64,000 bases of DNA from Polyangiaceae bacterium (lineage in GTDB: Bacteria; Myxococcota_A; Polyangia; Polyangiales; Polyangiaceae). The DNA lies in NCBI GenBank assembly GCA_947502375.1, contig CANMZR010000001.1:4886-68885 (forward strand). Direction: 5' to 3'. Below the pieces are notes generated by a model. That model ran no database searches and was not told the DNA's origin. It was given only the letters and a program-made list of their open reading frames with translations. The position numbers were made by a program, and so were the translations under genes. This document shows positions 30,826 through 60,732 of this stretch, in pieces; position 1 is the stretch's first letter, and every line of letters begins with the position of its first letter.

Positions 30826-31033
30826 TGAGACCCTCGCCGAAAAGCTGCTGCGCGCCAAATCCCGTCGGGCGGGTTCGCGGAAGGGACCGGAAGTGCCTAT
30901 CGCTCGCGCATGTTACTTAATAAAAAAATGCCTAGGGATTCGTCGCTCGCGACGCTTTTGGGCGAGGGCCCCCCGCGTTGGCAATTTGCAAAAGCCAGTA
31001 AGGCTAGGGCCTTTTCGGCGAGGGTCTAGTGAG
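30822..31033. mobile_element. MITE-like element: 196-bp body with perfect 15-bp terminal inverted repeats, flanked by an 8-bp direct repeat
   Basis: TIRs ACCCTCGCCGAAAAG (30830-30844) and CTTTTCGGCGAGGGT (31011-31025). Direct repeat CTAGTGAG at 30822-29 and 31026-33. The interior is visibly AT-richer and holds a third degenerate TIR copy (30953-30969). Confidence 0.5.
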
Positions 31034-31745
31034 TAGCGGCATTCTTTTGTGCGGTGGCCTCGACGACGGAGTCTTGCGCGCCCAAACCTTCCAGCCACTT
31101 CACGACGGTTTGCGTGCGCGGATCGACGACGACGAAGGACGGCGTACCAAAGGAGCTCTTCCCGGAAGGCAGCAATTGATAGCCCGGATCGGCGACGACG
31201 TGCACGGTCTTGAAGTTGTGTTTGTCACGCCATTCCTTGGCACCCGCGACAGTCGGCGGACCCGCGCCATCGGGTCCGGTCACCAACGTCGTGACCCACG
31301 CGACGCCGTAACCCTTCGCACGCCAAGCTGCGAGACGACCCTCGAGCGTCGCGGCGTCCTGCTCGCACGACCCGCAGTAAAATTTCGCCATCTCGAAGAC
31401 CACGACATCGAAGCCCTTTGAACCGTTGCAGTCAAAAAAGTCGCTCGCGTTGACCGTGACGACGTCATCACTTCCAGGGGCATAGCCTTGCCATTTGAGC
31501 GTGCTTGGCAATTGCTTTGCATCCGCGACACCCGGATCGGCCGGAGTGTAGGCGCAGTTGAGGGTGGCCGTCGGCAAGGCCGAATGGGCGCCATCCGCGT
31601 CCGCGCCCGTCGACGGAGTCCCGGTCGCGTTCGCATCGTCCACCGATACATCGCTGCCGCCGACGAGCTCATTGCAGCCAAACTGCATCCCTAGGGTGGC
31701 GAAGGAGAGACAGACAACGCCCGTCGAATAGCGTAGCGATCGCAT
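31026..31745 (-). CDS. Thioredoxin-fold (TlpA/redoxin-like) CxxC lipoprotein
   Basis: 239 aa from the internal ATG at 31745, with a lipoprotein signal (VVCLSFATLGMQFGC). The redox motif FYCGSCEQD sits in a TlpA-like context (FDVVVFEMAKFYCGSC...GYGVAWVT...PSFVVVDPRTQ). The ORF-track start at 31925 would overlap the WYL gene. Confidence 0.75.
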   Translation of the reverse strand: MRSLRYSTGVVCLSFATLGMQFGCNELVGGSDVSVDDANATGTPSTGADADGAHSALPTATLNCAYTPADPGVADAKQLPSTLKWQGYAPGSDDVVTVNASDFFDCNGSKGFDVVVFEMAKFYCGSCEQDAATLEGRLAAWRAKGYGVAWVTTLVTGPDGAGPPTVAGAKEWRDKHNFKTVHVVADPGYQLLPSGKSSFGTPSFVVVDPRTQTVVKWLEGLGAQDSVVEATAQKNAATH

Positions 31746-40568: not shown

Positions 40569-40679
40569 AAGTAATGGGCAGGCGCGCTCTGGTCAAGGGG
40601 CCCCGGGCGAATTGGAGGTAGAAAGGCGATGCACGGCGAACTCGCCAAGCGGACGCGACACGCTGTATGTTGCAGGTCT

Positions 40680-41393
40680 ATGGTCCTAGAACGTTCGTGG
40701 TTCGCACTGCCGTTGGCGACGGCGTTCGCCTTCGCGTGCTCTGTAGCAGCTCCGGCTGGTTCACCCAGCACCGCTGCAGGGAACAGCACGGTGTCGAGCA
40801 GCAGCATGGGTGGCTCGGTGTCGAGCGGCAGCATGGGTGGCATGGGTGGGCAACTGCTGCCCGCGGCCGGCACCGGTGGTAGCGCGATGGCCTCGAGCAG
40901 CACTGGCATGATGCTGGGCGGTGTGGCACTCGGCTGGAGCGCCACCGACTTTAGCGCGCTCGACGTCAACCCGAACTCCCCTCGCTTCAACCAGGCGGTC
41001 TCACCGAAGGACTACGCGACGCAGGTTTCGGGTTGGTACTTCGGACACGCCACGTGAGGCTACTGCAGTGGCCAGTTTGGTCACCTCGACACCCTCCAAA
41101 AAGACCTCACGGCAGCGGGCACCAAAGTGCCGATCCAGATCCTCGGTGTGAACGAGATCGGCTTCGAGTCCGGCAACGCGACCATCACTGCGGGACGCCA
41201 ATTGCCTTGGCTCCAGGCGACGGCAGCGGCTGACGTGTGGAAGGAATGGAAGCCCACCTACCGCGACGTCGTCCTCCTCGACGGTGCGAACAAAGTCGTC
41301 GGCATCTACAACCTGAGCAGCCACGATCTCGGGGTGGCTACAAACTACGCTGACTTGAGAGCTCTTTTCGTAGCCGCCGCGAACGCGAACTGA
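40680..41393 (+). CDS. Thioredoxin-fold (TlpA/redoxin-like) lipoprotein with an in-frame TGA at the first redox Cys position (UGYC); candidate selenoprotein, alternatively a nonsense pseudogene
   Basis: ORFs 40629..41057 and 41127..41393 share one frame, and the single TGA (41055-57) is the only stop between them. The joined product reads ...VSGWYFGHAT-U-GYCSGQFGHLDTLQKDLTAAGTKVPIQILGVNE...DVVLLDGANKVVGIYN, a TlpA-like layout. Lipoprotein signal from the ATG at 40680 (FALPLATAFAFAC). Confidence 0.6.
41068..41084 (+). promoter_or_regulatory. SECIS-like 17-nt hairpin beginning 11 nt after the in-frame UGA
   Basis: GUGGCC-AGUUU-GGUCAC: a 6-bp stem (one G.U pair) and a 5-nt loop containing GU. 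The size and the 11-nt spacing match what I recall for the minimal E. coli fdhF SECIS. Confidence 0.45.
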
Positions 41394-41402
41394 GCCGCAC
41401 CG

Positions 41403-43721
41403 ATGGGCTTCGCTCGGAGCGCGCTTGCGTGTGGGTTCCTGTCGCTCCTCACGGCCTGCTCGAATTGCCACCCTGGCCGAAGCGACAGCGTGCTTTCCGG
41501 TGCAAGCGCGCCCATCACCGACGACCCTGAACTCGCTGCCCGTATCAGGGCGGCGCTCGCGGCGAAGGGTGCCGACTACGTTCCGCGTACCCGACACAAG
41601 AACCCGGATGGCTCGCCGCGTTACACGAACCGCCTCATCTTCGAGTCGAGCCCGTACCTCCTTCAGCACGCCCACAACCCGGTCCATTGGTTCGCCTGGG
41701 GTGACGAGGCGTTCGCACTCGCGAAGGCCCTTCATCGGCCGGTCTTTCTCTCCATCGGTTACAGCACGTGCCACTGGTGTCATGTGATGGAGGAGGAGAG
41801 CTTCGAAGACGAGGCGACGGCGAAGGTGCTGAACGAACGCTATGTCGCTATCAAAGTGGACCGCGAGCAGCGGCCCGATGTGGACGGCGTCTACCTGAGC
41901 TTCCTTCAGGCGTTCACGGGCCGTGGTGGTTGGCCGATGAGCATCTGGCTTACGCCCGAACGAGAGCCGTTTTTTGGAGGCACCTACTTCCCGCCCAGGC
42001 GGGGCGCGGGAAGGAGCCCACCGGGGCTTGACGAGCTGCTCGATCAGCAAGCCGCGGCCTTTCGGTCCGACCCGCGCGCCATCAACGAGCAAGCTCAGAG
42101 GATTGTGGCCCGCTTGAAGACAGCCACTGCACCGCTACCCCAAGGTGACTTTCCCCCAGCTTCCTTGCTCGCCGATACGCGCTCGCTCGCTGCCCGTCGC
42201 TTCGACCGAGTAGCCGGAGGCTCCGAAGGTGCGCCCAAGTTTCCATCGTCCTTTCCGATACGGCTCCTGCTGCGCGTTGGGCAGCGCTCGCGGGACTTGA
42301 GCGCAATGAACATGGCTCGCCATACCCTCGAACGGATGCGTGCCGGGGGGATCTACGACCAGGTCGCCGGGGGCTTTCACCGCTACGCCACCGACGCTCA
42401 TTGGCTCGTCCCCCACTTTGAAAAAATGCTCTACGACAATGGAGAGCTCGCCATGACCTACCTCGAAGCCGGTCAGGCACTTTCGGAGCCGCGCTTCGAG
42501 GCCACCGCCCGGGATGTGCTCGACTACCTGCTGCGTGACATGCGCGCCGCCGACGGGACCTTCTACTCCGCCACGGATGCCGACAGTCTGGGTCCCGAGG
42601 GCACACGCGAGGAAGGCGCGTTTTTTACGTGGAGCCCCCTCGAGTTCGCTCGAGTATTGGGCCCCAAGGATGCGGCCGATGCCGTGCGCTGGTTCGGAGT
42701 GACCGAGCGCGGAAACTACGAAGGGCGCAACGTTCTCACCTTGGACGCTGCGAACATCGACTCGTCCATTTTTCCAGCTTTTTCGAGCACGGACGTGACC
42801 GAACGCCTGAACGGCATGCGCTTACGGTTGAGGCAAGCTCGGCAACAGCGCCCGCCTCCGCTCCGTGATGACAAGGTCATTGTCGCTTGGAATGCGCTGA
42901 CGATTTCGGCGCTCGCCCGCGCCGCTCTGGTGCTCGGTGATTCAGGGTACGGCGAGGCGGCACTCACCGCTGCCAAGAGTTTTCTTGCGCCATCGAGAGT
43001 CGGCAAGGCCTTGCCTCATCTGCGCTCGAACGGCGTCGACGTCGGCGCAGCATTTGCCGATGACCACGCACTCTTGGCGGCAGCGGCACTCGATGTGTTC
43101 GGGCTCACGGCCGAGCCTGAATGGCTCGACGATGCGACACGGTTGATGGAGAACCTCGAAGCGAACTTCTCGGACATCGAGCGCGGCGGGTATTATCTTT
43201 CCGCCGCCCAGCACGAGCACTTGTGGTTGCGCGAGAAGCCCGACCGAGACGGACCCATCGCAAGTGCCAACTCGGTGGCTGCGAACAACTGGCTTCGCCT
43301 GTATGCCCTCACGGGGAAGCCACGCCAGCTCGCATTGGCCGAGAAAACCTTGCGGGCATTCTCGATTGACCTGAAGCGGCAACCGCTGAAGCTCGACCAC
43401 TTGCTGATGGCCCTCGACTGGGCGACCGACGCGACGAAAGAAGTGGTCGTGGTGCTTCCGGTGGGTCGCGGCGCACTCGCCCCCGAGGCGCGGCCGTTGC
43501 TCGATGTGTTGAAGCGAACGTTCGTTCCAAACAGTGTGTTCGTCATCGCAGATGAGGAGCACCTCGGCCGCCTCGCGACGAGGGTGCCTTGGGTTTCCGC
43601 GAAGAAAACTCTAAAGGGTCTCGCCACCGCCTACGTTTGCGAGCGTGGGAGTTGCAAGCTCCCCACCACGGACCCAAAGGTCTTCGAGGAGCAATTGCGG
43701 CTGGCGCTTTCTTACCCATGA
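41403..43721 (+). CDS. DUF255 / YyaL-type thioredoxin-domain protein (N-terminal Trx-like domain plus a six-hairpin glycosidase-like domain), lipoprotein
   Basis: 772 aa with a lipobox (LSLLTAC) and the DUF255 hallmark [14 protein letters not shown]...[22 protein letters not shown]...[15 protein letters not shown]. Starts 9 nt after the redoxin gene stop. Confidence 0.85.
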
Positions 43722-52197: not shown

Positions 52198-54414
52198 TCA
52201 GATTTGGCTCGCCACTTTGGCACCCAGGTTCGCGGTACCCGTCACGTCGATGGTCACGGTGCCATCGGTTCGAATGGTTACCTGGCCGTCTTTCGTCAGC
52301 ATCACTGTGGAGGAGACTCCCCCGTCGGTGACAACCAGCGTGACGTCGGACGAGCCCGTCCAGCTCGCTGTCTTGGAGTGCTCCGTGTGTTTTTCTGCAC
52401 CCGTCAGCGCCAGGATTTTCCCTGCCCGCACCTCGATCGCAGCGCCGATTGTGCTCGTGCGCTCGGTGAAGCAACGAAGCTGCAGCTCGTCGTCGCTAAC
52501 AATCGAGTGCGTCCCCGTGATGCTCTCGGTGCGGTCACGCGTGGTCTGCTCCATTTTGGCAGACTTGGCCTTCTGCGAAAAACCACCCCCGATGGTGAGC
52601 TCCATCGGGCCTCCGATGGCGGTCGTGTGCTTCACCTTGAACTCCTCCGCGAGCTTGCCTTGGATGTCCTCACGCAGGTTCTTCGCGCCATAGTTCACGT
52701 CAGAAAAAACAGTCTGCGTGTGGTCGCCGACGACCCGCAGTTCGTGATCCCCACCGACGGCGTTGACGTCCCCGAGGCCAACCTTCCGAGAGTAGTTGCC
52801 GCCAACCTCCCACTTCTGATTGGCACCGACCGTCGGAGAATAGTCGGCGCCGATCTTCCACGTGGAGTTCCCACCCACGCTGACCGTCTCGTCGTTTCCC
52901 ACCGTCGAGGTGGCGCTGTTCCCCACCGACTGAGTCTGATCGTTCCCGACGAACACGTTCATGTCCTTCGGAGCACGCACAAATATCTGCTCGGCCCCCG
53001 CCGCATCATCGAAGCGAATCTCGTTACCGGTAATCCGGTCAGGCGTCGCGCGAGAGGTGAGCGCGGAGCGCGCCTTCGCATAGGGAAGCTTCTCTTGAAA
53101 GACATCGTCACCGTTGTAGACCCGACCCAGAACGACGGGCCTATCGGGATCGCCCTCCAGGAAGTGCACCACCACCTCCCAGTCTTTTCGAGGGATCGCG
53201 GAAGAACCGCCCGTGTTGTCCTGCAGCACCGGGACCCAGTGAGAGCAGTCGTCGTCGAAGGGACGGAGGCGGTCCCAGTGAAAGTGCACCTTGACGCGAC
53301 CAAAGTGGTCACAGTGAATGTCCTCGCCGTTCGTGCAAACGATCCCCGTGAGGGGGTTCATGATTCGTGGAACGTGGGTCGCACGCGCAGGTCGGTAGAT
53401 CGCGTCCCCGGCATCCGCCTCGAAAACAAGCTCGAAGCCCGCCTGCTCGCGGTCCCACGCATGCGTCAACTGACGGACGACATGTTCGCCTGGTATGCCG
53501 CCGACAGGCGCCTCGCTGAGCGCGAAAGTGTACCCGGGCATAAGACCGCCCGCTGTGCTCCGTCCGAGCACGGCCGCCGCGACGCTATCGAAGGCCTCGG
53601 CGTGGAGTCGTGCCTTGCGCTTGCCTTCGCCAGTATCCTCGAATTCGCCGGGAAAATCGTACCATTCTGGGCCGAACGTCACGGCCGTGGCGTGCGACAC
53701 ATCCATGTCGAGATTCGGATGCTCGGTGTTCCAGTCGCGCAGCGTAACCTTGCCTGGTGTGACCGCCGCGCGCGTGCCAAGCGCATGGACGGCGTCGTCG
53801 TTCTGGTTCACGCCCGCGGCCGACCGAAACGGCAGCATGAGACCGGTCGCTCCGTATGCGCTCCGGTGGTCACCCAACACCAGCGTGTCATCCTGCGTAA
53901 AGAAGTAGAAAATTCCTTCGTCTTCGAGGAGCCGGGACACGTAATCGAAATCGCTCTCGCGCCACTGCACGCAGTAGGGGCGCTTCGCGTAACTCTCGCG
54001 CAATCGGGTCTCGCTCTTCACGCCGAGCCCTGCGGCGACCTGCTGGGCTATTTCGGGCACGGAAAGGTTCCGATGAATACGGACGTCCTTGCGGTGTTTG
54101 AGCAACGCGAACCCTGGCTCGACGACGAGCCTCACCTGAGCGTGTCCCGTGATCGTCCCCGAGAGGGCGGCTTCGGTCACGATGCCGCAGATGGTCCGCA
54201 CGACGACGTCCCCGCGTCGAAGGGTGAGAACAGCCTTCGCCTTGATGACCACGTCGGGGTCAAACGCGTCCGGATCGCCACTCATCGTCTGTGGGTCGAG
54301 CACAAACGCAAGCTCGAAGCGCCAAGAGAGCGATAGCCCCTCGACGCCGGAGACCGTCCGAATCTGAAACGCGAACCCTGCGACGTCGAGCTGATAAACG
54401 AGCGGATCTTGCAT
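52198..54414 (-). CDS. vgrG: Type VI secretion spike protein VgrG (paralogue C)
   Basis: 738 aa from the ATG at 54414. gp27-like N-terminus, GEDIHCDHFGRVKVHFHWDR motif, gp5 OB region (DPDRPVVLGRVYNG) and a beta-helix repeat tail. Confidence 0.9.
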   Translation of the reverse strand: MQDPLVYQLDVAGFAFQIRTVSGVEGLSLSWRFELAFVLDPQTMSGDPDAFDPDVVIKAKAVLTLRRGDVVVRTICGIVTEAALSGTITGHAQVRLVVEPGFALLKHRKDVRIHRNLSVPEIAQQVAAGLGVKSETRLRESYAKRPYCVQWRESDFDYVSRLLEDEGIFYFFTQDDTLVLGDHRSAYGATGLMLPFRSAAGVNQNDDAVHALGTRAAVTPGKVTLRDWNTEHPNLDMDVSHATAVTFGPEWYDFPGEFEDTGEGKRKARLHAEAFDSVAAAVLGRSTAGGLMPGYTFALSEAPVGGIPGEHVVRQLTHAWDREQAGFELVFEADAGDAIYRPARATHVPRIMNPLTGIVCTNGEDIHCDHFGRVKVHFHWDRLRPFDDDCSHWVPVLQDNTGGSSAIPRKDWEVVVHFLEGDPDRPVVLGRVYNGDDVFQEKLPYAKARSALTSRATPDRITGNEIRFDDAAGAEQIFVRAPKDMNVFVGNDQTQSVGNSATSTVGNDETVSVGGNSTWKIGADYSPTVGANQKWEVGGNYSRKVGLGDVNAVGGDHELRVVGDHTQTVFSDVNYGAKNLREDIQGKLAEEFKVKHTTAIGGPMELTIGGGFSQKAKSAKMEQTTRDRTESITGTHSIVSDDELQLRCFTERTSTIGAAIEVRAGKILALTGAEKHTEHSKTASWTGSSDVTLVVTDGGVSSTVMLTKDGQVTIRTDGTVTIDVTGTANLGAKVASQI

Positions 54415-54421
54415 TGGATTC

Positions 54422-56686
54422 TCAGCCGTTGTGCTTGATGAGCTTGGTGACCGAGACGAGACTCTCAGCTTGACCGAGGTCGTAACTGGGCGTGCGCAGG
54501 GTGACGCTGTCTTTCGTGATCTCGATTGTGCTCGCGCCGGACTGGAGCACGATGCTCGTCTTCGCCTGGACGTGAAGTGTCGGCGTCTTCCCGACCAGCG
54601 CCCCCGTGACATTCCAGGTCGATGTTTTGTCGGCGCCGTCCAAGAAATGCTCGTCCGCCTTCATGACGAGATTTCCCGTCACCGTCTCGGTGAACGTGCC
54701 GTTGATTTCCACCGAGTAAGACTGTTTGCACTTTTCGGTCTTTCCCGCACCCACCTTTTTCTCAGCATCCGCGGTGACTTGCTCGGAAAGTATGCCCTCG
54801 ATTGTCTGCTGCGCCTCACCCTTGACGGTCACCTTGGCCTTCGCCGCGGAGACCTTGATGAGCCCTTCCTTCGCGGTCTCGGTGGCGTCACCCAAGACCT
54901 CGAGCGTTCGGTCTTTGATGACTTGGTGGGTCACGCTTGAACCGATCTCGAGGGCGCGCTTTCCGCCGATGTTTTCCTTCTCGTTACCCCCGACCGTCTT
55001 CGTGCGTGCCTTCGTTATCTCCACCGTCTCGTCCCCGCCGACCTTGAACTGCTGATCGTTCATCACCGCGTCGATCATTCGCGCCCCGATCGACACGTCC
55101 TGATTGCCGCCGACGCTCCGGACCTGGTCGTGATGAACGCCCTCACCGAAATTGTTGTTCACGAGGTAGTTCATGTCACGGCTCGCGTTGACGAAGAACT
55201 CCTGCACGCCGACGAGGTCCTCGAAACGGAACTCATTCGCGCCCCCGCCGCCCGGGGAAGTGGCACTGCGAAACACGGTGCGCGTCTTGTTTTCGGGAAG
55301 CGGATAAGTCGGCGGATGCGCGGCATCATGAACGCGGGACAGAATGCTCGGCGCGTCGACGTTCCCTTCCTCCATCAACACCACCACGTTCCACCCGGTG
55401 CGCGGGTAAGACATCGACATTCCAACGCCGCGCTGAGCCACGCGCATCCACTTGCCAGCTTCATGATCCCACGCGCCCTCGCGGTCCCAGTGAAGCTGCA
55501 CGCGCACGCGGCCGCGCTCATCGGTGTGGATCTCTTCACCGGGTGGTCCGACGACGCGACCGCTCTGGACCCCCGCCTGCTGACTCACCGGCGTGAGCTC
55601 GGCTGGTCGGAACGCAATTTCCTCGCGGATCGCCTCAAAGTGGCAACGATAGCCGCCCCCTGCGCCCGCGAACGCACGGCGCTGCTTCACCTCGTACACC
55701 ACCTCCGTGACGAAGTAGCGGCCGTCGTAGACGGGATGATTCAAGAGCTCGACGATCCGGCCCGGTTCGAGACGAACGCTGGAGGCATTGCCGCTCACGC
55801 CGGCGCGCAGAGAGAGTGCGATCTCGAGGCGCTTTTTCGCCTGTTCGCGGCAGACCTCCAGGCTCTCAGGGCCGCCGCCTGGCGCCTCGTAACTTGCGTG
55901 AAAGCCCTTTCCCTCGGTCGCCGTGACCTTGAGCTCCGGGTTCCAAGGGCTGAAAGAAGCGACCGTGAACCGCGTGGCCGTCGCATGGGCCTCGCTTCCG
56001 AGTTCGTGAATGTACTCGTGGTCCCCCAGCATCCCCTTTTCGAGCGCGAACTCGATGGACGGACCGCCGGTGAGTTCGGGTGCGAACCCGGAGTCGTCCG
56101 AAAAAATCAGCGTGCTGTCAGCTCCCTCGTGATCGAACCAGTAGTAAATGCCTTCCTCCTCGAGAAGTCGCGAGATGAAGGTCCAGTCCTCCTCGCGGTA
56201 TTGCGCCGTGTAGACGTGACTGCGATAGGTTCGCGTGAGCGCCCAGCGATACGGGTGCTTCGTGGGGAGTTTTTCCAGCACACGATCGACGATATCTGGC
56301 ACCGACAGATCATTGAAAACGCGGCTGTCACGCGAGAGCGAGAGCGGGTAAAAGTTGGGGCGTACGGTAAGTCGAAGCTCGGCAGTCCCCTCATCTCGCA
56401 GAAGTCGCTGCGCCTCCGTGAGCATTCCCTGGATCGAGCGGCGCACGCCAAAGCCGTCGTGAAGGACGAGCTCGCACGACCTACCGAGCAGCAGTTTCGG
56501 GGCCGGGCCGAAAGCGACATCCGCACACAGGACCTCGAAGGAAAAGAGCTGGCTCACGGTCTCTCGGCCATCGAGCGAGAGCACCTCGTAAGGAACGCCG
56601 TCGACAGTCAAAGCGACGTGCTCGTCCAGGAGTGCCGCCGCACCCGCCCGAACGGCGTCATCCACGAGTTGGTCAGCAAGCGTCAT
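54422..56686 (-). CDS. vgrG: Type VI secretion spike protein VgrG (paralogue A)
   Basis: 754 aa. LSLDGRETVSQLFSFEV, EEGIYYWFDH, GEEIHTDERGRVRVQLHWDR, and a beta-helix tail. Confidence 0.92.
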   Translation of the reverse strand: MTLADQLVDDAVRAGAAALLDEHVALTVDGVPYEVLSLDGRETVSQLFSFEVLCADVAFGPAPKLLLGRSCELVLHDGFGVRRSIQGMLTEAQRLLRDEGTAELRLTVRPNFYPLSLSRDSRVFNDLSVPDIVDRVLEKLPTKHPYRWALTRTYRSHVYTAQYREEDWTFISRLLEEEGIYYWFDHEGADSTLIFSDDSGFAPELTGGPSIEFALEKGMLGDHEYIHELGSEAHATATRFTVASFSPWNPELKVTATEGKGFHASYEAPGGGPESLEVCREQAKKRLEIALSLRAGVSGNASSVRLEPGRIVELLNHPVYDGRYFVTEVVYEVKQRRAFAGAGGGYRCHFEAIREEIAFRPAELTPVSQQAGVQSGRVVGPPGEEIHTDERGRVRVQLHWDREGAWDHEAGKWMRVAQRGVGMSMSYPRTGWNVVVLMEEGNVDAPSILSRVHDAAHPPTYPLPENKTRTVFRSATSPGGGGANEFRFEDLVGVQEFFVNASRDMNYLVNNNFGEGVHHDQVRSVGGNQDVSIGARMIDAVMNDQQFKVGGDETVEITKARTKTVGGNEKENIGGKRALEIGSSVTHQVIKDRTLEVLGDATETAKEGLIKVSAAKAKVTVKGEAQQTIEGILSEQVTADAEKKVGAGKTEKCKQSYSVEINGTFTETVTGNLVMKADEHFLDGADKTSTWNVTGALVGKTPTLHVQAKTSIVLQSGASTIEITKDSVTLRTPSYDLGQAESLVSVTKLIKHNG

Positions 56687-56730
56687 ATGGTTTCGTTTTG
56701 CGCCTCAGCGGCTTGCCTGTTGGCCCGGAA

Positions 56731-58962
56731 TCACTTGGTGAGATTGTCCTTGTTTCCAGTCACGGTGATCGTGCGTTTCGCGTCGATGAGCAGCTTACCC
56801 TTGAAGGCAATGCTTTTAGGGTCGAGCTTCAGCCCCGCGCCGCCGCTCGTGAATTCGAGCGATTCGTCCGCCACGAGGAGAATTTTGTCGCCATTGATTG
56901 CGATTTTTTCCCCGCCTTGAAAGAGCGCGCTCCCGGAAGCGATGCTCGTGGTCTTTGCGGAGTAGCCCATCTTCGTCTTGACCGCGCGCGTCGCGTCCGC
57001 GCTGATCTTGAGATCGAACTTGCCGCCGACCCGGAGACTGATGCCGCCGTCCGCTACCTCGACGGTCTTTGTCCCGGCCACCGTCTCCTTCAAGGTGTCC
57101 TGCACGAGGAGCTCGAGGCTGCCCTTGCCCGTCACCTCCCACTCGCCCACCGAGCGCTCAAACCCATCGACCACCTGACGCGTGATAGAGCCGCTCTTCT
57201 CGGCCGCCTCGACGGTGCGATTCGCGTCCACTTTCTCGAGGTCGTTGCCGGCAATGGTATGGCTGTAGACCTCGGTAATCGTGAGTTTCTGGTCGACCGC
57301 GATCTTTTTTTCGCGATCCGCCTCGACCGAGAAGGAGAAGACCCCGCCCACGTTGGCGGTGTAATTCCCGCCAACTTCAACACGCTGGTCGTTGACGACG
57401 GTCGTTGAATAGTTCGCCCCGACGCTCTTCGTCTCGTTTGCGGCGATCGCATACGTCCGATCGTTGTCGACCGACGCATTGAAATCCTTTTCGCCGTGCC
57501 AGTCCATGTGCATGAGCCCGCCGAGGTCCTCCATGCGCAACTCGTTGAAGCCACCGCTCGCACTTGGGTAGCTTGGCGATTTCATCGTGTGGCGCGTCTT
57601 GTTGGCGGGCTGCGCGTACTCGGCGGTCATCTGCCCGTTGATGTTTCGCGCGATCCCGATGGGCCGATCGGGATCTCCGTTGATGTACGCCACGCTCTGC
57701 TCCCAGCCGACACGAGCGAGTGCGGTGCCGTTCGCCGTCTCCTGAACATTGCGGAGCCAGCGGGAATCCTCGTCACTTCTGGTGGCCTCGCGGTCCCAGT
57801 GAAACTGAGCGCAGAAGCGACCATGCACGTCGGTGTGAATTTCCTCCCCGGCCGGGCCGCGAACCATCGCTGTATGGGTTCCGGCAATGTGGGGCTGCGG
57901 GGTCACGAGTGGCGGACGGAAAGGCACCTTCTTTGGGATGCCGGCGAAGGTGTTCTCGTAGGAAATTCCGGAGCTGGCCTGACCATCGACGACGTGCTCA
58001 AACTTGCCGTTGCGGTAGCGATGCTCGACGCCGACGATCAGGTACTCGCCCGCGAAGCGTGGCCTCGCGAGCGCGCCGAACGTGAAGGAGCGTGCGGGCG
58101 CGAAGGAATGGACGTTGCCCGTCCCCGTGACCTGGCTCGCGGCCACCCGGTAGGCCTCGAGTCTGCGTTGTGCGAGGAGCGGCCCTTGCTCGGAGCGACG
58201 GAAACCGACGGGGTAATCGTACACCTCGAGTTCGGCGTCTTCTTTGGCCGAAGCGGAGGCGAGGAGTTTCACCTTGGGCTTTTTCCAGTTGAAGTCGTTC
58301 ACGGTGGCAGCGCCTGAGGTGACCTTCCGCTCCTTCGTGAACTCGCGAAGTCCGACGCGCGTCCACTCCATGGCTCCGCCAACCTCCACGAGGTCGAAGG
58401 CGCTCTCGCCCGCCACCTTCGGCGCGTCCTCGGAGCGATCGGACAGCACCATGGTGCCGTCGTCCTCGAACGCGTAATGAATGCCCTCGAACTCGAGCAG
58501 ACGGCTGATGAAATCGAGATTCGTCTCCGAGTACTGGACGCAATACTTTCGCGTCTCGGTGGGCCGGGCGAGCTCGAAACGGTGCGCGACCTGGTGCTCG
58601 GCGAGAATTTTAGAGATGATGGCTTCGGCAGAAAGTTTCGTAAACTTGCGCTGGTTCTTCGTGAACCGAAGCAACCAAAACGCTGGAAAAAGCTGGGCAA
58701 TATAGCGCATCGAGCCATCGACGATGCGAATGAAGTCAACGTGTCCGACGCGCAGTGTCCAGCGCCTGGGAAGCCCACCGAACGGCGCAACCACGAGGGT
58801 CGCGTCCTTCTCGAGGACGTCCTCGAGACGCAACGGAAGCGCGCTCGCGAGCTCGACCCGTGCCACCGTGGGGACGGAGATGCGCTCCAAAACATGGGCG
58901 GCTACGACGGCCAAGGGTTCAGGCGTATCGAGGATGAGCGTGAGTTCGGCGTCGCTGCTCAT
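56731..58962 (-). CDS. vgrG: Type VI secretion spike protein VgrG (paralogue B)
   Basis: 743 aa. FEGIHYAFEDD, GEEIHTDVHGRFCAQFHWDR, GDPDRPIGIARNING, and a beta-helix tail. Confidence 0.92.
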   Translation of the reverse strand: MSSDAELTLILDTPEPLAVVAAHVLERISVPTVARVELASALPLRLEDVLEKDATLVVAPFGGLPRRWTLRVGHVDFIRIVDGSMRYIAQLFPAFWLLRFTKNQRKFTKLSAEAIISKILAEHQVAHRFELARPTETRKYCVQYSETNLDFISRLLEFEGIHYAFEDDGTMVLSDRSEDAPKVAGESAFDLVEVGGAMEWTRVGLREFTKERKVTSGAATVNDFNWKKPKVKLLASASAKEDAELEVYDYPVGFRRSEQGPLLAQRRLEAYRVAASQVTGTGNVHSFAPARSFTFGALARPRFAGEYLIVGVEHRYRNGKFEHVVDGQASSGISYENTFAGIPKKVPFRPPLVTPQPHIAGTHTAMVRGPAGEEIHTDVHGRFCAQFHWDREATRSDEDSRWLRNVQETANGTALARVGWEQSVAYINGDPDRPIGIARNINGQMTAEYAQPANKTRHTMKSPSYPSASGGFNELRMEDLGGLMHMDWHGEKDFNASVDNDRTYAIAANETKSVGANYSTTVVNDQRVEVGGNYTANVGGVFSFSVEADREKKIAVDQKLTITEVYSHTIAGNDLEKVDANRTVEAAEKSGSITRQVVDGFERSVGEWEVTGKGSLELLVQDTLKETVAGTKTVEVADGGISLRVGGKFDLKISADATRAVKTKMGYSAKTTSIASGSALFQGGEKIAINGDKILLVADESLEFTSGGAGLKLDPKSIAFKGKLLIDAKRTITVTGNKDNLTK

Positions 58963-60059
58963 GAGAGATTCTCCTTGGCGTGGCGGTGCTCATCAAGCCG
59001 TCGGCGAAGCTCGGGATAAAAACTCGTCGGCAGTTCGCTGGCGTTGGTTACGCGGATTTTCCCGAGGCGCTCGCTCTTCTGCGGCAGCGGCACGCACACA
59101 CGCCAGGTGAGCTCGACGACGCGGTCATCGGGATCGGTGAGATCGACAAGGAATGTGTCCAGGTGCGTCGTAAAGGAGCGCTCTTCGCCGTCAAGCGTGA
59201 CATCGAAGCGCGGCGCATACCGCGGCAACCGGAAGCGGAACGTGCCTTCGGGAGTCGCCCCGACGACCTCGACGGGCTCGTCGCCGAGCAAGGGCTCCTG
59301 GCTCCAGAGCTCGGGGTGAGCATCGCTCGTGAAGCGCGGATCGTAGTCGGCCGGAGCGACAGGGTAACGGTAACGGTAGTAGCGGTCATCGGTCGTGCCG
59401 TAGAGCGCACGGCGGCGCGGCCACTGAGGAGTCGTCGGCCCAAAGCCGGCCGGCGCGCCTCCATCGAGAGACTCGATGCGGTACGCTTCCAAGCCAACGA
59501 GCTTCGCTGGCGAGCCGTAGCCAACGCCCACCGGGTTGTCGGCATGCTCGCGCTTGGAAGCGATGGCATCCGGATCGACCCCGCCCTCGGCGAACTCGTA
59601 AACGAGCGGCACCGGCTCGAGGATGGCTCCGGCGGGGCCGGGTGCCACGCCCGTCCATTTTTTCATGAACACCCGATGCCCGAACACCCGCAGCTTCTTC
59701 GCGAGCGTCCGGGTGCCGGTCTCGATTCGAAAACGCACGTCGAGCTCCGTCGGCGCGGGTGAGCCCTGGGAGCGCGGCGGCGGGTAGGCCGAACCGAGCA
59801 ACAGGACGTCGGTGCCGAGTTTCGCCGTGAGGCGATCGCTCGGAAAGTGCACGGTCCCTCCAGGCGAGCCCCGCCAGAGCGTGGTCAGCCGGATCGGACG
59901 GGGCTCGAGCGCCACGCGTGCCTCACCGCGCGCCGAAACCTGCCAGGTCAATCGCGCGACAACGACCGCGCAATGTTCCCCGGTGGGCGCGTCCACGGCG
60001 AAACAGTCCGCGTGGGCGAGGGAGTTGTTTTCGAGGACCCTGTTCGGTCGAAGCGTCAT
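58959..60059 (-). CDS. DUF2169-domain protein (second copy), translationally coupled to vgrG-B
   Basis: 366 aa from the ATG at 60059. MTLRPNRVLENNS...CAVVVARLTWQVSARGE...KLGTDVLLLGSAYPP. ATGA overlap with the vgrG-B start. Confidence 0.72.
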   Translation of the reverse strand: MTLRPNRVLENNSLAHADCFAVDAPTGEHCAVVVARLTWQVSARGEARVALEPRPIRLTTLWRGSPGGTVHFPSDRLTAKLGTDVLLLGSAYPPPRSQGSPAPTELDVRFRIETGTRTLAKKLRVFGHRVFMKKWTGVAPGPAGAILEPVPLVYEFAEGGVDPDAIASKREHADNPVGVGYGSPAKLVGLEAYRIESLDGGAPAGFGPTTPQWPRRRALYGTTDDRYYRYRYPVAPADYDPRFTSDAHPELWSQEPLLGDEPVEVVGATPEGTFRFRLPRYAPRFDVTLDGEERSFTTHLDTFLVDLTDPDDRVVELTWRVCVPLPQKSERLGKIRVTNASELPTSFYPELRRRLDEHRHAKENLS

Positions 60060-60165
60060 CGAGCGGTCAACCCACTTTGCAGGGCGAACACACGCCTGAG
60101 GTTGGAGCGGTGTTTCAAGATGGCCATGAGATTCATTGCGTGATGGGAACCTAGGTTGACTTCCA

Positions 60166-60732
60166 TCAGTTGAGTCGAAGCATCCGCCCAACGAGGCGGA
60201 AAAGTCCCCGTGAAACGGCAGAGACGCGTGTACCGACGAGCTCGATCTCGCCGTCGTCACGTAGCCGCAGGGCGGCCCGCCCGGTCCGGAGCAAAATCTC
60301 TCGGTCGGCTCGAATCTCGATGCGCTCACCGCTCACGAGCACCTCGCGCGGTCGCCGCGTCTGCAAGAGGCCGATGACGATCGGAACCTCGTTACCGGCC
60401 CGCTCCACCAACACCGATGTGTGCGCCGCAAACGCCTCGAGAAGCAGCTCCCGATCGACCTCGGAGGCGACCAACGCGCGCTGGGGCTCCTCCGAACCGC
60501 GCCAAGCGATCGTCACGTCAAGCGGACCCACTTTCACTAGGCGAGCAGAGCACACCGTCGGCAACGGTCCCGGCTCCTCGCGACGAGGCGTCGCTAGCGC
60601 CACCTCGTCGAGAGCGGTGGTCTTATCGTCGGGGGCAGCGCTCGCGTCCTCAAGACTCGCGTCCTCAAGACTCGCAAAGCTATCGACTTCAAGGTGTTGC
60701 GTTCCCATGCGCTGAAGGGCGGACGGTAACAC
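60166..60732 (-). CDS. Hypothetical small T6SS-island protein with a VgrG-tip-like beta-strand repeat motif
   Basis: 188 aa. The C-terminal VSGERIEIRADREILLRTGRAALRLRDDGEIELVGTRV resembles the short beta-helix repeats at VgrG C-termini. The N-terminus is acidic, with an SLEDA-SLEDA duplication. Confidence 0.5.
   Translation of the reverse strand: MLPSALQRMGTQHLEVDSFASLEDASLEDASAAPDDKTTALDEVALATPRREEPGPLPTVCSARLVKVGPLDVTIAWRGSEEPQRALVASEVDRELLLEAFAAHTSVLVERAGNEVPIVIGLLQTRRPREVLVSGERIEIRADREILLRTGRAALRLRDDGEIELVGTRVSAVSRGLFRLVGRMLRLN

Follow-up and report, generated by a model that had tools for sequence, protein, structure and literature searches.

An in-frame UGA followed by a covarying SECIS-type hairpin very probably encodes selenocysteine in a putative envelope thioredoxin-fold protein of a Polyangiaceae bacterium

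Does a TGA codon that interrupts a predicted lipoprotein gene of a Polyangiaceae bacterium end translation, or does it encode selenocysteine (Sec)? The gene lies on the plus strand of a 64,000-nucleotide stretch of DNA (assembly GCA_947502375.1, contig CANMZR010000001.1, positions 4,886 to 68,885; the whole stretch is called the window below, and coordinates count from its first letter). An earlier reading made without database searches (the sequence-only reading) had described two open reading frames (ORFs) in a common frame, parted by one TGA, and had proposed that together they encode a selenoprotein. The ORFs, 40629..41057 and 41127..41393, do share a frame in the ORF list, and translation of 40629..41396 (plus strand) bears the description out: there is a single frame, its sole internal stop is the TGA at 41055-57 (context ...VSGWYFGHAT-*-GYCSGQFGHL...), and it closes with a second TGA at 41391-93. 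Counted from ATG 40680, the read-through product has the proposed length of 237 aa, with the peptide ...HAT-U-GYCSGQFGHLDTLQK at the Sec site; an alternative start, ATG 40629, has GGAGG 11 nt upstream. The public metagenome record (ENA ERZ28613056 scaffold_339) splits the gene into ORFs of 83 and 88 aa. We consider it very probable that a single gene occupies the region and encodes a thioredoxin-fold protein, anchored in the envelope and about 237-254 aa long, in which the UGA at 41055-57 is read as Sec and a hairpin at 41068-84 serves as the selenocysteine insertion sequence (SECIS). The parts of this gene are listed here.

40629..41393, plus strand: complete coding sequence of the predicted selenoprotein, starting at ATG 40629 or ATG 40680 (single frame; match to the NCBIfam family NF053656).
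40680..40739, plus strand: signal peptide with a lipobox-like end, ...LATAFAFA-C, the Cys codon being 40737-39 (from the sequence; putative lipoprotein).
40740..40943, plus strand: low-complexity linker rich in Gly, Ser, Ala and Met between the anchor and the domain (from the sequence; equivalents in the homologues P0003, P0005, P0006 and P0009).
40944..41375, plus strand: predicted thioredoxin-fold domain (match to the NCBIfam family redoxin_TUGYCR; AlphaFold2 (AF2) model of the homologue P0002; Foldseek).
41055..41057, plus strand: UGA as probable selenocysteine, first position of UxxC in T-U-G-Y-C-S (TGA in homologous loci; CxxC in relatives).
41064..41066, plus strand: TGC, the putative resolving Cys of UxxC (invariant C46 in alignment A1; kept in Sec and Cys forms).
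41068..41084, plus strand: SECIS-type hairpin with stem 41068-73 / 41079-84 and loop AGUUU at 41074-78 (covariation; consensus geometry).
41391..41393, plus strand: TGA, the real stop codon of the gene (translation).

The internal TGA is widely conserved. In a collection of 5.8 billion proteins, seven of ten matches stop exactly at ...SGWYFGH[AS]T, and two more print W and then continue into the conserved C-terminal half. When the contigs of four relatives (L001, L003, L005, and L006) are read through, each has an in-frame TGA followed by GYC or SYC...QFG and the full domain. One genome per species was also scanned with peptide patterns that leave out the Sec column, which found 293 relatives, and the codon was counted in the best 80 of these 293 relatives' loci plus six earlier loci. 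TGA is at the Sec column in all 80 motif instances; seven of eight loci outside the first motif pattern have it as well, as does L038 behind a degenerate first domain, so that the genome scan totals 87 of 87 motif instances. A metagenome scan seeded with Cys forms, with patterns that likewise omit the Sec column, detected TGA in 64 of 65 distinct loci and TGC in one. About 150 distinct homologues from several phyla thus have TGA at this column, and the metagenome-assembled genomes that host them are labelled Polyangiaceae/Myxococcota, Planctomycetota, Latescibacterota, Gemmatimonadota, Eisenbacteria, Krumholzibacteria, and others. The 35 invariant columns of alignment A1 are spread over both halves of the protein and include C46, a residue of the Sec motif.

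More distant relatives have Cys at the same place. A profile search of 1.84 billion representatives returned 1609 matches; among the matches listed, 55 full-length relatives have C-x-x-C at the Sec column, five have W-x-x-C, and about ten have degenerate non-redox motifs. A further 99 of those listed are fragments that do not span the TGA column, mostly C-terminal halves that start just downstream. At the level of sequence, this distribution of TGA and CxxC is the classic Sec/Cys pattern, and it settles what orthologues carry at this column, a question that the sequence-only reading had raised: TGA in the loci scanned above and Cys in distant full-length relatives. The same reading had pointed to a Cys-containing relative inside the window, at 31026..31745. 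This minus-strand ORF does read FYCGSCEQD, but it is not homologous to the gene (BLASTP E >= 1; no Pfam match), and that part of the proposal falls. The ORF is lipoprotein-like, with the CxxC motif in FYCGSCEQ, and may encode another, unrelated envelope thiol-disulfide protein.

The five WxxC proteins (P0001, P0002, P0015, P0065, and P0118) bring in the possibility that a standard amino acid (Trp, Cys, or Gly) is inserted at this UGA, whether through reassignment across the genome or through unspecific read-through. The W printed in these database entries would fit such decoding, as would the lack of Sec machinery genes in the 64-kb window, but we regard it as very improbable. The five proteins are presumably spurious, their UGA having been rendered as Trp through a TGA=Trp code in the depositing pipeline. 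TGA is the stop of 29 of the 35 genes in the window, including the gene in question, so UGA is not reassigned genome-wide and recoding must be local; the host phyla are also not known to use code 4 or 25. Moreover, full-length relatives have Cys at this column, where the nucleophile of the CxxC redox motif sits, and a hairpin of SECIS geometry is retained specifically in the TGA forms.

Several homologues have other architectures. L065 contains two TGA-containing copies, L065:2347 and L065:3109, which are 762 nt apart. In L038 (2140-3453) and in P0025, a degenerate non-redox domain (with T-A-Y-A or S-I-Y-S) is fused to a Sec domain. P0011, a protein of 612 aa, has five matching stretches, three of which align at the motif column, all three without UxxC or CxxC.

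The sequence-only reading had kept one alternative, a TGC-to-TGA nonsense mutation at the catalytic Cys that would leave the downstream ORF as the decaying remnant of a pseudogene. This would be compatible with the single sequence taken alone and with the two short ORFs called in the public record. We therefore turn to the codons after the UGA. The ratio of nonsynonymous to synonymous substitution rates (dN/dS) over these 111 codons is 0.31 against L007, 0.28 against L008, and 0.20 against L006, and over the 40 codons before the UGA it is 0.15-0.20 against the same three relatives. These ratios indicate that the frame beyond the TGA is under purifying selection. A pseudogene is effectively excluded by this intact downstream frame, with its dN/dS of 0.2-0.3, and by the conservation of TGA at one column across phyla; the covarying hairpin kept beside the codon also contradicts it. 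It is likewise scarcely credible that the region makes two separate products, an N-terminal lipoprotein fragment ending at the UGA and a C-terminal piece starting at GTG 41127. Two products are exactly what ORF callers yield, but conservation in the family is highest in the 23 codons that separate the TGA from GTG 41127 (GYCxxQFGxL), the split would sever one thioredoxin fold after strand 1 and before helix 1, and each Cys relative is a single polypeptide. Several independent results thus contradict each of the three alternatives, namely a pseudogene, code reassignment, and two proteins.

If the UGA is to be read as Sec, a SECIS hairpin is expected beside it, and the sequence-only reading had proposed one: 17 nt long, with GU in the loop, starting 11 nt past the UGA. 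We found it in the sequence as described. The hairpin GUGGCC-AGUUU-GGUCAC (41068-41084) has five Watson-Crick pairs and one G.U pair and begins at the 11th base past the UGA, i.e., with ten bases between. An ungapped alignment of 77 distinct sequences was made over the UGA with 9 nt of upstream and 60 nt of downstream sequence. The six pairs are formed in 98.9% of the cells of this alignment, and 65 cells, spread over five of the six pairs, show compensatory double changes. The observed pairing values are not reached by any of 500 shuffled controls, and pairing falls to 24-49% when the partner is slid by 1-3 columns. RNAalifold recovers the same helix and, in the 60 nt after the UGA, predicts nothing further except a mini-helix of two non-covarying pairs. 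A further 64 TGA forms from metagenomes form a mean of 5.73 of the six pairs, and the six Cys forms with available DNA form 3, 3, 2, 2, 4, and 6 pairs (mean 3.3 of 6). The fully paired Cys form (L171:501-1022, CSYCRGQFGFL), which is unlike the other five in this respect, may retain its hairpin as a trace of a recent Sec-to-Cys replacement.

The stem lies inside the coding sequence and its loop encodes the conserved Gln-Phe, which raises the possibility that the protein is a selenoprotein but that the 41068-84 hairpin reflects protein constraint or general mRNA structure, the true element being elsewhere. The same hairpin in the Cys form L171 and the lack of an Rfam match (see below) also agree with this. 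We judge it quite improbable, given the way in which the stem varies. Covariation crosses codons and forces unrelated sets of amino acids (SG..H, SS..Y, SA..H, RS..F, SI..Y, SV..R), and, at positions +4/+5 and +9 after Sec, nearly all residue combinations are compatible with base pairing (alignment A2, columns 22-39, corresponding to 41067-41084 of the window). Codon choice follows the same rule in the Sec forms: Ser is written as AGU, with G and U in the stem, and the Gly codon, GGG or GGC, is chosen so that pairing holds. Both the amino-acid pairing and the codon constraints are relaxed in the Cys forms, and the residues of the loop and closing pair, QFG, are present in 75 of 76 Sec forms versus 17 of 55 Cys forms. 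RNAalifold offers no substantial second helix within 60 nt of the UGA, and the geometry of the hairpin matches the bacterial consensus, as follows.

Bacterial SECIS elements have been described as having a loop of 3-9 nt, a stem of 4-16 bp, and a minimum free energy (MFE) of at most -7.5 kcal/mol, with G as the first or second loop base, G or U usually coming next, and a distance of 16-37 nt between UGA and loop (PMC13188914). The hairpin agrees on each count, with a loop of 5 nt, a stem of 6 bp, G-U at loop positions 2 and 3, a UGA-loop spacing of 16 nt, and a core MFE of -8.8 kcal/mol. In hairpins bound by SelB, the loop G is about 20 nt from the UGA (PMC4605307). The loop G in the window lies 20 nt from the U of the UGA. 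With the E. coli fdhF-type SECIS and bacterial SECIS elements in general, the hairpin shares its place directly 3' of the UGA, an upper stem of 6 bp, and a small loop in which G and then U stand close to the 5' side. It differs from the fdhF type in having neither the bulged U nor an extended lower helix supported by covariation, and the family's loop AGUUY doubles as Gln-Phe codons. The minimal fdhF element of E. coli, studied by Liu et al. in 1998, is reportedly also 17 nt long and located 11 nt downstream of the UGA. The hairpin can therefore be taken as a SECIS on the strength of its fit to the published bacterial consensus and its strong covariation, though it matches no Rfam model.

To which family does the protein belong? 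With U written as C, the joined protein matches NCBIfam NF053656.1 at 213.2 bits (E = 1.3e-63; curated cutoff 100 bits), covering 145 of 146 profile positions and aa 89-232 of the 237-aa product. This profile is named redoxin_TUGYCR, 'TUGYCR motif thioredoxin fold (seleno)protein'. The family is therefore already curated at NCBI as a (seleno)protein family and the window gene is an ordinary member of it; because of this earlier curation, the locus does not add anything of a new category. The gene shares with NF053656 the T-U-G-Y-C motif with Sec from an in-frame TGA, and differs from the family name in the sixth motif residue, which is Ser and not Arg; S, R, G, V, and I all occur at this place in members. 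Full-text searches for the TUGYCR-type motif or NF053656 found no relevant paper, and a review of prokaryotic selenoproteins from May 2026 (PMC13188914) does not include it in its table of families.

The UxxC selenoproteins of the thioredoxin superfamily that this review does describe are a Prx-like thiol:disulfide oxidoreductase (PF00578), a Redoxin family protein (PF08534), and a UGC-containing TlpA family protein (cd02966) (PMC13188914). They resemble the window gene in having Sec in place of the nucleophilic Cys of a CxxC-type motif, homologues with Cys, and a SECIS just downstream. However, the window protein is below the threshold of models of the PF00578, PF08534, and cd02966 type, weak precomputed AhpC-TSA matches are found only on some of its Cys relatives, and the conserved block WYFGH[AS]T-U-[GS]YC-xx-QFG is peculiar to its family.

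The sequence-only reading had assigned the product a TlpA-like layout with the TGA at the first position of CxxC, and structural modelling supports this. A homologue with 47% identity and W at the Sec column (P0002) was modelled by AF2 in place of the window protein. An alignment of 60 rows gave a predicted local distance difference test (pLDDT) score of 94.2 and a predicted template modelling (pTM) score of 0.89, and an alignment of four rows gave a poor model (pLDDT 50.8). In the 60-row model a strand at 49-55 (ISAWYFG) precedes the Sec position (59) and a helix at 60-78, which places the Sec column at the N-terminus of helix 1, the canonical active-site geometry of the thioredoxin fold. Foldseek searches of the P0002 model against the PDB matched BsSco, Bcp1, ResA, a putative DsbE, BcpB, SdbA, and the pneumococcal lipoprotein thioredoxin Etrx2 (E ~1e-7, template modelling (TM) scores of 0.6-0.8, 12-17% identity). 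The family profile reaches only E 0.1-0.9 against PDB sequences, and in one such weak alignment (E = 0.16) the Sec column falls on the first Cys of the DsbE CGPC. The modelled fold is thus of the TlpA/ResA/DsbE/Prx-like type.

At the N-terminus, a hydrophobic segment runs up to A-C and the Gly/Ser/Ala-rich linker comes next; a simple pattern heuristic detects a hydrophobic stretch with [GAS]C at its end in 58 of 71 distinct homologue N-termini. Given this shared layout, the protein is likely to be an extracytoplasmic lipoprotein. TlpA, ResA, CcmG (DsbE), and the pneumococcal Etrx proteins share with it a thioredoxin fold with extra N-terminal strands and a redox motif that starts helix 1. They are anchored to membrane or lipid outside the cytoplasm, an anchoring that is predicted for the window protein. 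The latter differs from them in its low identity of 12-17%, with no significant Pfam or PDB sequence match, and in having Sec for the first Cys; its gene has no ccm, sco, or msr neighbours in the window.

Taken together, the conserved TGA, the Cys relatives, the covarying SECIS-type hairpin, the fold, and the selection downstream uphold the proposed selenoprotein. The order of parts in the protein would be a signal peptide with a lipobox-like Cys, a flexible linker, and a TlpA/ResA/DsbE/Prx-like domain with the active site U-G-Y-C. During translation, SelB carrying Sec-tRNASec would bind the hairpin via the G-U of the apical loop and would deliver Sec to the UGA in the ribosomal A site, and ordinary UGA codons without such a hairpin, including the gene's own stop, would lead to termination. 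The mature protein would most likely be an extracytoplasmic thiol/selenol:disulfide oxidoreductase, in which the selenolate would act as the attacking nucleophile and the Cys three residues on would resolve the intermediate. The events themselves, namely SelB binding, actual selenium incorporation, lipidation, export, and the direction and substrate of the redox reaction, are inferred.

A number of observations weigh against this interpretation. The fold of 41055-41110 has -13.7 kcal/mol and z = -0.64 relative to dinucleotide shuffles, so the window hairpin alone is no better than shuffled sequence and its significance comes solely from comparative data. The control set of Cys forms is small (n=6), and one of these keeps the hairpin. 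Rfam SECIS models gave no match at the gathering score, nor at E <= 10 on 41030-41130; because the bacterial SECIS models of Rfam are, as far as we know, specific to other gene families, this miss was not weighed against the Sec reading. Neither selA, selB, selD, nor a tRNA-Sec gene was detected within the 64-kb window (ARAGORN; Pfam scan of 41 ORFs). The joined window protein matches no Pfam family at E <= 1, AhpC-TSA, Redoxin, and Thioredoxin_8 included, and its sequence has no significant match in the PDB, so the fold assignment depends on the model of the 47%-identical homologue. Finally, we found no literature evidence of experimental selenium incorporation for any member of the family.

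A bolder proposal, which we consider rather unlikely, is that the family is an envelope selenoenzyme with an activity different from that of the TlpA/ResA-type reductases, for example a lipid-anchored selenol peroxidase or a sulfenate/persulfide reductase of the outer envelope. In that case, the SECIS of 17 nt would be a minimal element found in nature, with pairing that demonstrably dictates the permitted pairs of amino acids.

The surroundings of the selenoprotein gene add a second thioredoxin-type protein:

41403..43721, plus strand: neighbour gene, DUF255/Thioredox_DsbH, 772 aa, with a lipobox-like N-terminus (LLTAC) (PF03190, E = 7e-68).

It starts 10 nt past the stop of the selenoprotein gene, and these two genes for putative thioredoxin-type envelope proteins may be co-transcribed. 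The pairing with DUF255 was not found in the four relatives with annotated neighbours (L001, L003, L005, and L006). On the other flank of the window gene is a divergent TetR regulator with an efflux operon. No conserved neighbours were found when flanking ORFs were clustered over 85 loci, which gave the gene itself, its antisense shadow, and low-complexity noise. In L006 and in a contig of GCA_041447055.1, VgrG and/or DUF2169 genes adjoin the copy of the selenoprotein gene, which suggests loose regional synteny. In the window, genes of these types are part of a type VI secretion cargo island on the minus strand (47956-60329), with two DUF2169 genes, a PAAR-toxin gene (49342-51366), and three tandem VgrG genes (52198-58962).

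The window also contains a near-complete flagellar cluster (1384-25422) that encodes MotA/MotB, FliF, FliG, FliH, FliI, a FliK-like protein, FlgD, FlgE, FliL, FliM/N, FliO, FliP, FliR, FlhB, FlhA, FlhF, and a rod protein. The genome carrying the closest relative of the selenoprotein gene is labelled Polyangiaceae; Myxococcota are classically non-flagellated gliders. A scan of the window for further TGA-bridged coding ORFs, based on G+C content at third codon positions (GC3), yielded no candidate and was not discriminating, as GC3 is ~0.75 and shadow frames pass.

The public record splits the gene, and the same codon cuts short most of its database relatives. Annotation of the region should show a single selenoprotein gene; the two-ORF split in ENA ERZ28613056 scaffold_339 is a correctable annotation error. 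The family, which is not listed in the selenoproteome literature that we searched, is a large (>1,600 representative sequences) and phylogenetically broad group of putatively envelope-anchored UxxC proteins, with Sec forms from Myxococcota, Planctomycetota, and several candidate phyla predominating. With its short and clean SECIS, its abundant compensatory changes, and its natural control in the Cys forms, it is a convenient model of the minimal requirements of a bacterial SECIS outside Enterobacteria.

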